Assembly (NCBI RefSeq): GCF_048403405.1
Contig: NZ_CP183129.1
Source of the DNA: Escherichia coli
Lineage (GTDB): Bacteria; Pseudomonadota; Gammaproteobacteria; Enterobacterales; Enterobacteriaceae
Strand: one strand, 5' to 3'
DNA: 64,000 bases
Shown: positions 12,001 to 15,000 of the stretch, piece by piece
Numbering within the stretch: the stretch's first letter is position 1
Layout: each line of letters begins with the position of its first letter
Program-made: the position numbers

Positions 12001-15000
12001 AATATCTGAATTAGCCGCCTGTAATGGGCGGTTTTTCTTTTCCATCAGGCCACCTTCCCGCGGCGTTCTGCCAGCCAGTTGTGAATCTCAACCGCATCAA
12101 ACGCAGTTATTTTTTCTCCCAGCTTTACCGGACGTGGTAGTGAACCGTTTCTTACTTTACGGTCGATGGTGGATACACTAACGCCCAGCAATTCAGCCAG
12201 GCGGAAGCGTCTGATATAGCCTTTTGTAGGAATAGTGTCGGTGTTCATGCTTCCCGTAACCTCTTAGCGATAGTTGTTGCTTCGTTACGGGAGGAAGTAT
12301 CTGTACATATATGAACAATAAAAAGGCACAGTAATGATACTGTGCCTGAATAGTTAGCTACTCTACCCCTTACCGTTGGCGGCAGCACGTAAGTGTCTCA
12401 AAATCACATCTTCATTTGTGATTGCTAACGGTGGAATTTCGTCTTTATGAGCCACTATGCAATCCCGCCACTTCTCAGGGCTTATTTCTTTCTTTTTGCC
12501 ACGGCATTCATCAGGATACTTTGACAAAAGATATATTGCAGATTTGAAAAGTTTTTCCCTGTTTTCAGCATGTCTCTCGGCATTATGGTTGCTATTTTTT
12601 ATTTCAGGTATTAGTTCCTGTTCTACCGCCATTTCGTATCGTTTTTTGCTCTTAGCTGCGTCAAAACTTCCATTAACCTTTGCGTCATGAAGGTATTCTA
12701 AATCAGCCTTTGTTATATAAATGTTTTTATCTGACAGGCTACTCAGGTGAATTTGGGAACTTTGCATTTTGAATTTATATAGATCACAATCAAATGTTGC
12801 TTCAAGTCGCACATATGGTTCTCCACATTCTTGTGAATGATAATGTCGTGTTGTTCTACCGCGTACACGCAACAATCCACATGCAATTGATTTTCTTACA
12901 ATAAAAGAGTTTTTGCCAATTTGTTCAAAAACATTTTTATTGTCGCTGTCTTCAACTGTCAGTGGTTTATGTGCATAAAATAGCTCATAAGCACCGCTTT
13001 CAGATGCTGGGATATAAACTTCGTTGCTTGCGCTGGTAATAAGAAAAGGAAATGTAAACCTTACTTCTTCTGGGTACATAAGTAATAAATCAGTTATAAA
13101 ATTAGCATCTTTTTTGAAGTGGATGGTGGCATCAGATTCAATGAAATCAAGAAAGTCAGCATAGACATAAAAGTCTATATGTAGTCTATCTTTCCAATGC
13201 CATATATCATCAATTTCACAATTTAATAATTTTGATGCTCGCTCTATCGTGCAGTAGTCCAAAGGTGGAATACCTGATTCCTGCCATAAATTTCTATGCA
13301 CCACTGTTGTTTCATGAGAGTCGTTCATTGCGTCACCTTTTACGCTGCGCCTTATTTTGTGATTGAGCCAGGCGGTAAGGCTTCCCGCTTTTCGCCCCGT
13401 CGAGCTAGGCTCAATCTATTCAGTTAGTTCGCCCTTCTGAGAGGCGTTACGTTGTAGTCTTTTCCGCTTTCCAGTGCCACCAGCAGATCAGCCCACTGTG
13501 CCAGTGCTGCTTTACGCTCATCAAAATACTGATGGCGGTTATAAATCCCCTCTACGCCCTTAATGCGATGATTGAGGCATCGTTCCGCCACGACAGGATC
13601 AACACCCAACGCTGCTAAATGAGTACGTGCGGTGCGTCGGAAGTCGTGAATCGTGAAATTAGGCACATCCGGCATTTCGGCGCGAACCTTAGCCAGTGCT
13701 ACGGGCAAAGTGCTTTCCTGAATATGTGGGATCATTCTGTTTTGCATCTTCCTGGCTGGAAGCACCCATGCGCTATTACATGAAAAGGTGTGTAGCTCTC
13801 TCAACCATTCAACGGCTGGGGAAGGTAGAGGTATATCAATAGGGTCTCCGTTTTTGCTGCGTTCTTCCGGCAAATGCCATACCGCACCATCTAAATCAAA
13901 CTCTTCCCATCGTGCGGCGCATAACTCCATCTTACGAACGCATAGTGCCAGCAATAGCTTAAATGTCAGTTCGTTCTGGCGGCTGAATCCTTTTGCGGTG
14001 CGCATAGCCTCGAATAGCCTGATAAGCTCATCGCGAGTTAGCCAACGGTCGCGGGAAACCTCTTTACCACCAGCATCAGATACTTCAAACGCTGAACAAG
14101 GGTTTATCTCCAGAGCGTGGCGTTTTATCCCGTAGTCAAAGATACGGCGTGTCCAGCGTAATACATCTGTTGCTATCGTTGGTGCTCCTCGGTCAACGAT
14201 ACCTTTCAACATGTCGTCAATGTGGCGTGGCTTAACGTCCTCTACCTTCATATGCCCAATGCAGGGGTTAATATCCTTATCAATTCTCCGGCGAAGGATA
14301 TCGGGATGTTTCCATCTCGGAAGTATCTGGCGCTCGAAGTATTCGGAGGCCAGATCTGAAACACGCATGGCGTTTTTCTCAGCCTCCATTTTTGCCAGTG
14401 CTTCAGCTTTTCGTTCCTGTTTCTCTGCTGCTACGTCATAGCCAAGAGCAACTCTGGCTGACAGCTCTTTTGCTGTTTCTCTGGCTTTTGATAGTGACAG
14501 TTCGGAGTAAGAGCCTATAACCATAGCCCGCTGCTTTCCTGCGAGCTTATAGCGGAATCGCCAGAACGGGGCTGTGTAGTTTTTGGGGTAGCAAATATAA
14601 AGGCCGTTGCCGTCTGCCTTGCCATCAAATCTGTCTCCCGCCTTTATCCATGCGCGGATCTGCATATCTGTGAGTTTTGGCATTGCGAATACCTGAATAT
14701 CGAATATGGGTGTGTACATAAAGCAATGTACATGAAAGTCATTATGTACACCTCTATGTACACGCATATTGTGCGCTTTATTGCGTCGTTATGATAGCTC
14801 ATGATAACAAAAAAGCCCGACATTTCGCGGGCTTTGTGGTTTTTTGCTGCTTGGTGATTTTTACTGATAGCTTATTCGATATTCTGGATCTGCTCGCGCA
14901 TCTGCTCAATCAACACTTTCAGCTCGATGGCAGAATTCGTCACTTCGGCATTGATAGATTTCGACGCAAGAGTGTTCGACTCGCGGTTGAACTCCTGCAT

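Follow-up and report, generated by a model that had tools for sequence, protein, structure and literature searches.

A 64,000-nt stretch of Escherichia coli DNA (contig NZ_CP183129.1 of assembly GCF_048403405.1; hereafter the window) carries, adjoining yicC, a satellite-like island in which a single gene stands between int, encoding a tyrosine integrase, and alpA, encoding an AlpA-like regulator. This gene, here called X (12363..13328, minus strand, ATG start, 321 aa), is best explained as part of a phage satellite of the AlpA type, namely of its integration zone, and not as free cargo. Nothing demonstrates that X is cargo; the gene belongs, as yet uncharacterised, to a positional class with one experimental precedent, and by analogy with that precedent we tentatively propose that X might be a DNA-binding accessory factor working with integrase and AlpA. 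By what route helper phages activate Gram-negative satellites is recognised as an unanswered question (PMC6092414; PMC10803314), and X is a tractable candidate for the unsolved control of induction and excision in these elements. In the Vibrio satellite PICMI115, the only known excision gene besides int and alpA sits in exactly the position of X.

Position and architecture of the X family

The initial annotation of the window, made from its sequence, had described a 321-aa open reading frame (ORF) between the integrase and AlpA genes and had called it an orphan. The ORF is present as described, and an identical copy is labelled 'hypothetical protein' in RefSeq (WP_001000004.1); its orphan status does not hold. 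By a scan of 1.84 billion representative proteins at E<=0.001, the family of X comprises at least 161 clusters (50% identity); the proteins listed are mostly of 265-350 aa, and many of them match X in two stretches, one N-terminal and one C-terminal. Structural comparison with Foldseek against AFDB50 gave 132 matches at E<=0.001; the matches listed come from Enterobacterales, Aeromonas and Vibrionaceae, and are named 'uncharacterized' or a generic equivalent. No functional name was found for any member in the sources searched. The family is widespread in the Gammaproteobacteria and unnamed.

The order int -> X -> alpA is kept in 18 of 20 family members that were located through the protein itself and not through int. 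These loci are in Pectobacterium, Pantoea, a citrate-lyase-adjacent island, two metagenomic/assembly contigs and a Klebsiella circle; in Aeromonas, Salmonella, Enterobacter and Cedecea; and in Zobellella, Rheinheimera, Gilliamella, two more Aeromonas, a Vibrionaceae genome, Vibrio furnissii and a Rhodocyclales genome, a last set (Zobellella to Rhodocyclales) whose integrases are only 24-30% identical to that of the window. The order holds across different attachment sites. It also holds across helper types, as the Aeromonas island carries Ogr/Delta and a GPO/capsid gene (P2-helper functions) where the E. coli islands carry P22-type genes. Because the order is kept in both P2-type and P22-type islands, X travels with the int/alpA pair, independently of which helper-exploitation module an island carries. 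No family member was found in 50,697 phage genomes.

Three regions can be distinguished in the protein. Residues 18-60 (13149..13277, minus strand) appear to form an AlpA/MerR-like winged helix-turn-helix (HTH) with the family consensus PPLEYCxxxRAAxLLxCxxxDIxHWAxxGAI, the only module common to all family members aligned. They align in register with the AlpA of the same island (hhalign E=7.5e-5, probability 62%), and are modelled by AlphaFold2 at a predicted local distance difference test score (pLDDT) of 94-97, the mean for the whole model being 86.6. Residues 61-195 (12744..13148, minus strand) make up a body that is beta-rich in the AlphaFold2 secondary structure. This is the most divergent part of X and is wholly replaced between alleles, with an identity to the window allele of 20-26% even where the C-terminus is 72-78% identical. 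Residues 245-321 (12366..12596, minus strand) form a helical C-terminal module, 'type 1' (AERHAxNREKLFKSAIYLLSKYPDECRG..EISPEKWRDC), with invariant columns; it occurs in many members and not in all, many others having a different C-terminus, so that the AERHAxNREKLFKSAIYLLSKYPDECRG stretch is one of several alternatives.

The initial annotation had recognised no motif in the protein, and the probable N-terminal HTH corrects this statement. The profile and structure searches it had called for pointed to the AlpA-like HTH; they otherwise gave no assignment of X in Pfam, NCBIfam or PHROGs. X does not reach the Pfam threshold for Phage_AlpA or HTH_17, and one of 70 family members matches HTH_17 (E=0.015). 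The PDB gave nothing meaningful when searched by sequence, either with X alone or with the profile of its family, and Foldseek against the PDB gave nothing below E 0.2 (best E 0.22). The N-terminal profile alone, searched against the database for fusions to known domains, returned only five short fragments. Residues 198-220 contain IYITKADLEYL, which resembles the ...I.r.dLeeWL end of HTH_17; this segment might conceivably complete the HTH wing, though a chimeric profile failed to lengthen the alignment. Among the excisionase-type proteins AlpA, Xis and TorI (Phage_AlpA, HTH_17), the island's own AlpA aligns in register with the N-terminal 40 residues of X, and the fold class of X appears to be MerR/excisionase-like. 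X differs from these proteins in its size (321 aa compared with 60-80 aa), in its variable body of about 145 residues and in its helical C-terminal module. Together, these comparisons define a large and easily recognised family of int-alpA slot genes across the Gammaproteobacteria with a predicted DNA-binding N-terminus.

We compared X with full-length orthologues in Salmonella, Enterobacter and Cedecea. Non-synonymous differences (pN) are 0.15-0.25 per site against synonymous differences (pS) of 0.68-0.76, with synonymous sites saturated; since pN is well under pS, X is a real protein gene under purifying selection. Over the whole gene dN/dS is about 0.1; it falls to 0.03-0.04 in the C-terminal module and reaches its highest value for any measurable segment, 0.16-0.23, in the body. 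Non-synonymous change in X is 2.5-3.4 times that of int (Salmonella and Cedecea orthologues). As X is clearly constrained, its diversity therefore comes mainly from the replacement of alleles and modules, and not from relaxed constraint. This analysis essentially excludes that X is a decaying or functionless passenger, kept by its linkage to int and alpA. The lack of an assigned function and the solitary copies seen in two Klebsiella species would suit a passenger, but purifying selection with saturated synonymous sites, full-length and intact copies in 76 complete E. coli genomes, a confident AlphaFold2 model and a family that spans several bacterial orders would not.

Slot content and cassette exchange

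The slot between int and alpA was examined in 44 usable IMG/VR loci, chosen through their integrase (int identity 62-99%). An X-family gene occupies 28 of them. The remaining loci hold a family of 216-235 aa (7 loci, several of these genes overlapping int by 4 nt), a family of 284-295 aa (4 loci), one of 233 aa (3 loci) and one of 213-218 aa (2 loci). These five families are mutually unrelated, and a DUF6387 protein in the slot of one further E. coli island brings the total to at least six. Weak hints that the 284-aa (E=1.4e-3) and 233-aa (E=1.3e-3) proteins are related to X or AlpA were not accepted. The initial annotation had suggested checking related int-alpA islands for different genes here, and had named the same gene in the same slot of every related element as the contrary outcome; at least five unrelated families plus the DUF6387 protein show that the slot is variable, and the X family keeps the slot in about two thirds of the loci.

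Although its content varies, the format of the slot is constant. In all 44 loci it holds exactly one co-directional, AT-rich ORF of 213-368 aa, within a length of 790-1244 nt, and it is never empty. The slot genes have 32-43% GC compared with 39-56% for int, in every host. X itself is more AT-rich than its neighbours, as had been noted: its GC content is 37%, compared with 50% for int, 50% for alpA and 47% for the next ORF, and a sliding window falls to 0.34-0.36 over 12500-13250 from about 0.47-0.52 on both flanks. Because all slot genes in all hosts are AT-rich, this composition is a property of the slot and no mark of recent insertion.

The yicC islands of two other E. coli loci (L002 and L003) give the clearest view of exchange. 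Relative to the window, their int is 99%, their alpA 100% and their next ORF 98-99% identical, whereas their X alleles are only 40% (L002) and 27% (L003) identical. Alleles of 27-40% identity inside a 99-100% identical int/alpA context show that X is swapped as a cassette between otherwise identical islands. The exchanged segment starts at the X start codon, the 101-nt int-X spacer with its Shine-Dalgarno sequence being identical in the window and L003. Its other boundary, at the base of the conserved alpA leader hairpin described below, lies about 45 nt upstream of the alpA ATG, and the cassette carries about 70 nt past the X stop codon. Within the X family, modules reassort as well: the HTH is constant, and the body and C-terminus are exchanged. 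This natural series of X alleles in otherwise identical E. coli islands makes the question of X function directly testable.

Such variability could also be read in another way. The principal rival explanation, which we consider possible but doubtful, casts X as a moron-like gene that acts against phages or other satellites, or in superinfection exclusion, from an accessory slot next to the integrase. X would then be expressed from the quiescent island, and its variable body might, with the same reserve, recognise a phage component. X is AT-rich with its own terminator, six or more unrelated families share the slot, and backbones that are 99-100% identical carry sharply different X alleles. This pattern of slot-family and allele diversity is typical of genes under frequency-dependent selection. 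PICIs (phage-inducible chromosomal islands) have been reported with immune systems at their 5' or 3' ends (PMC11364771), and a related island, EcCIMP1, adds to immunity against its own helper (PMC11773190). If X were an exclusion or defence gene, the slot would represent several new satellite-borne single-gene systems.

The searches for defence systems argue in the other direction. Against PADLOC-DB v2, X gave one weak match, to the candidate PDC-S31 (E=0.002, 15.6 bits, residues 183-266). We reject this match as evidence for defence and attribute it to chance, as it was not reproduced in eight X homologues (0 matches at E<=1), two of which are 72% and 58% identical. Five alternative slot proteins gave only a non-significant mad1 match (E=0.039), the slot families had no match in PADLOC or NCBIfam, and no recognised defence system was found in the 44 loci. 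No recognisable effector domain was found in X by Pfam, NCBIfam, PHROGs or Foldseek searches. In being integrase-proximal, AT-rich and variable in content between related elements, the slot does resemble the defence hotspots of P4-like satellites and PICIs. Those described, however, differ in how many cargo genes they contain, known systems among them (PMC10803314; PMC11364771), whereas the slot holds a single gene of uniform size. The suggestion of the initial annotation that the slot behaves as a defence hotspot is therefore retained for content variability alone. Moreover, the link of the X family to int and alpA does not depend on helper type, and the only gene in the int-alpA position that has been tested experimentally acts in excision.

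Leader RNAs and a possible role in excision

The spacer between int and X, of 95 nt in the window copy, is filled by a structured RNA that the initial annotation had not noticed. It is the three-stem 'int-alpA RNA' of Rfam (RF02996), at 13349..13415 on the minus strand, with a full-length match (model positions 1-71) of 60.6 bits against a gathering score of 35.8, and a minimum free energy of -32.4 kcal/mol (z = -3.0). The 3' end of the RNA lies 20 nt upstream of the X start codon, and X has its own Shine-Dalgarno sequence, as had been claimed: AAGGTG, 5 nt upstream of the ATG (aaaaggtgacgcaATG). The same RNA directly follows the int stop codon in 18 related loci (L003, L004, L005, L009, L012, L020, L022-L026, L029, L031, L036, L042, L050, L052 and L061), where it precedes X-family, 213-218-aa and 284-295-aa genes. 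Wherever the start codon is readable, the 3' end of the RNA lies 17-21 nt before it, whatever the family of the slot gene; the loci whose slot gene adjoins or overlaps int (L002, L007, L011 and L018) lack the RNA. From this placement, the int-alpA RNA looks like a 5' leader of the slot gene and not like a free small RNA.

On the other side of X, a hairpin at 12252..12292 (minus strand; TCCCGTAAC, a 23-nt loop, GTTACGGGA) stops 3 nt short of the alpA ATG, and its loop contains the Shine-Dalgarno sequence of alpA. An equivalent perfect hairpin of at least 7 bp lies a few nt before the alpA start in 48 of 59 loci, with the Shine-Dalgarno sequence in the loop or 3' arm. These hairpins have 24 different stem sequences with compensatory changes (for example CCCGTAAC/GTTACGGG, GTGTATGAC/GTCATACAC, CCCTATTAC/GTAATGGGG and TTTGATACTTCC/GGGAGTATCAAG) and loops of 9-29 nt. 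The compensatory changes and the variable loop length point to an RNA structure that probably gates the translation of alpA. Searched at E<=1, the window region has no Rfam family at this hairpin. X is, then, a precise cassette between conserved RNA elements, and the orphan int-alpA RNA motif is tied to the start codon of the slot gene.

These elements also bear on the earlier description of X as an insulated insert outside the backbone of the island. That description fails on two counts, as X lies between conserved RNA elements and its AT-richness is general to the slot. The terminator on which it partly relied is real in the window copy: an intrinsic-terminator-like hairpin with a T-run (12314..12347, minus strand) starts 15 nt past the X stop codon, with a GC-rich stem of 10 bp (12347-12324), a 4-nt loop and then TTTTTATTGTT. 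It folds at -21.5 kcal/mol (z = -4.6), and none of 200 shuffled sequences folds equally well. A simple scan found a comparable hairpin and T-run in only about one third of related loci and no terminator after the slot gene in about two thirds. Strong termination, and with it the 'insulation', is thus a trait of the window allele and a few others and not of the X family.

The closest precedent for X, by analogy of position, is given by the iolg and icg genes of the PICMI satellites (phage-inducible chromosomal minimalist islands) of Vibrio. In these elements the gene between int and alpA is called iolg where it overlaps int, by 1-13 nt, and icg where it is only contiguous with it; across PICMIs, such genes make up 13 families, unrelated to one another and of unknown function (PMC10803314). 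Deletion of iolg in PICMI115 abolishes helper-induced excision, packaging and transfer, and the authors propose that iolg is expressed constitutively with int (PMC10803314). X resembles iolg and icg as a single gene between int and alpA, co-directional with both, in a slot filled by many mutually unrelated families of unknown function, and it would share with iolg the expression in the quiescent state. Two Vibrionaceae members of the X family come closer still, one overlapping int by ATGA (L077) and one starting 2 nt after it (L080). The window X, in contrast, neither overlaps nor abuts int, its spacer being the int-alpA RNA; among other family members, the spacer is as short as 18 nt in L002 and 11 nt in L007. 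The window island also differs from PICMIs in being much larger (>10 kb) and enterobacterial, with a Bro/C4 zone and P22-type late genes.

We therefore propose, with due caution, the following role for X. While the island is quiescent, int and X would share a transcript that starts at the island end and reads on through the int-alpA RNA leader; a sigma-70 consensus scan of the int-X spacer gave no promoter, and co-transcription is therefore what we infer. In the window copy, the transcript would stop at the X terminator, which would keep the helper-induced alpA operon separate. X would bind DNA by its N-terminal AlpA-like winged HTH and would, like iolg of PICMI115, work alongside integrase and AlpA when a helper triggers excision or induction. 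The variable beta-rich body and the exchangeable C-terminal module would set the specificity for a partner protein or signal, which would explain why alleles, and unrelated proteins, are swapped into the slot.

Several observations count against this proposal. The similarity of the X HTH to known families is below Pfam significance. The C-terminal type is unlinked to the type of int, alpA or next ORF, so no partner is indicated. Replacement by unrelated families, allele mosaicism, AT-richness and expression while the island is quiescent are no less typical of genes for defence or exclusion. The two exceptions among the 20 located family members are Klebsiella loci with no detectable int or alpA, and classical PICIs such as EcCICFT073 appear to have no slot gene, as judged by ORF numbering only (PMC6092414). 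The likeness to iolg and icg is positional, with an excision role shown in PICMI115 only, and there the complementation used int and iolg jointly, so polar effects are not fully excluded (PMC10803314).

A different role in the same process, which we hold to be unlikely, is that of a helper-sensing master switch, a counterpart of Stl. The HTH of X would sit on the alpA control region and block the auto-activation of AlpA until a helper protein binds the body. Like Stl of the Staphylococcus aureus pathogenicity islands (SaPIs) and Rpr of PICIs, X has an N-terminal HTH followed by divergent regions, which in Stl and Rpr bind the partner; it lies beside int, varies strongly between islands and would be expressed in the quiescent state. 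The body of X is followed by a helical C-terminus. X is also directly upstream of alpA, its HTH resembles that of AlpA, and the approximately 70 nt that travel with the cassette past its stop codon could move a cis-acting site along. In Gram-negative PICIs a global repressor is not established, and AlpA is an activator that is induced in a helper-dependent manner by an unknown route (PMC6092414; PMC10803314). Against such a switch, X has no similarity to Stl/Rpr-type repressors or to any PHROG, and it is co-directional with the induced operon and not divergent from it. The N-terminal HTH is conserved but the DNA past the stop codon is not, and the spacer between X and the alpA leader showed no conserved operator. 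The TGTACA that this spacer shares with repeats upstream of int was rejected as a binding site, being a single copy that is unconserved in relatives. Furthermore, deletion of iolg in PICMI115 abolished excision and gave no constitutive induction, a phenotype opposite to that expected of a repressor.

A reading close to this switch goes further, and we give it as little weight. X, and maybe its replacements in the slot too, could be the missing link between helper and satellite: a constitutive AlpA-like DNA-binding protein whose body senses a helper product and gates AlpA induction and excision, with the int-alpA RNA as its leader. If this were true, the swapping of alleles would re-target the satellite to new helpers.

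The surrounding island

The module int-X-alpA opens the island. The integrase gene, upstream in the module, spans 13424..14683 (minus strand; 419 aa with the RefSeq start, the longest ORF reaching 14767) and matches phrog_1 (E=5.6e-64); its relatives have Arm-DNA-bind_3, Phage_int_M and Phage_integrase domains. The downstream gene, alpA (12045..12248, minus strand), encodes a regulator/excisionase-like HTH protein of 67 aa that matches phrog_66 (E=9.5e-8), and AlpA relatives match Phage_AlpA and HTH_17. There follow a 143-aa ORF, an AntA/KilAC-type antirepressor, a DUF4222 protein, an 'ash family protein' ORF (9532-10599), small ORFs, a primase (annotated as DUF5906 here, and as TOPRIM/DUF927 in relatives), DUF2824 and P22-type DNA-ejection genes. 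A C4 antisense RNA (9991-10078, minus strand) and an isrK RNA (10141-10218, minus strand) lie inside the 'ash family' ORF. The pair forms a P1/P4-style RNA immunity module that is found in most related loci, sometimes with a c4-a1b1 target motif.

Gram-negative PICIs follow a four-zone plan of integration, Bro/immunity-RNA, replication and captured late genes (PMC10111431). By gene order, the island of the window has this same layout and is best explained as a PICI-like, AlpA-type phage satellite. It resembles EcCIMP1, whose helper is the P22-like phage Kapi1 (PMC11773190), and shares with it the DUF2824 and P22-type DNA-ejection genes of the far end (1497-4050, minus strand). The final ejection gene in L001, the closest complete genome, is cut short beside an IS66 transposase, and for this reason this island copy may have lost its mobilisability. 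Integrase-defined relatives are found in IMG/VR as contigs of 9-31 kb.

A search for direct att repeats within the window gave nothing convincing. The stretch that separates yicC from the int start codon contains four TGTACA(T/C) repeats in 50 nt (14713-14762, minus strand), and these account for 4 of the 11 TGTACA of the whole window; GTGTAC(A/C) repeats stand likewise upstream of int in L005, L007 and L012. The repeats are probably arm-type recombination sites of attL. In the Zobellella element, a fis-type att core (AATACGGCATGAA) lies beside int.

Outside the island, the 'reverse transcriptase family protein' gene that lies between pyrE and slmA in L001 (19384-20343) and L003 (14262-15221) is absent from the window, where pyrE (16629-17285) is directly followed by slmA (17322-17960). 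In the cryptic prophage CP4-57 of E. coli K-12, YfjH (318 aa) lies between intA and alpA, with the same neighbours and much the same length as X; its gene is on the opposite strand relative to the layout around X. YfjH was rejected as a homologue of X (BLASTP E=0.44, hhalign probability 0.5%, other strand).

A few members of the X family stand in unusual settings. In Rheinheimera maricola (L074) the order is int -> alpA -> X -> alpA, with AlpA-like genes at 3047-3244 and 4398-4625. Solitary X-family genes occur in Klebsiella spallanzanii (L078, 3474-4235) and K. michiganensis (L079, 3474-4337); in L078, the one of the two whose neighbours were examined, these are ordinary chromosomal genes (mlaA, a formate/nitrite-type transporter gene, cynR and cynX). 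Such solitary copies could have been left behind by islands that decayed, or could have been domesticated. The X family is also matched by four Klebsiella records of 19-23 kb that were deposited as non-mobilizable 'plasmids' (CP031371.2, NZ_CP033626.1, LR134256.1 and CP031370.2). The one of the four that was examined, CP031371.2 (L014), is a circle of 21,845 bp with the order X -> alpA -> antirepressor -> DUF4222, and these records are most likely excised satellites that were assembled as replicons.

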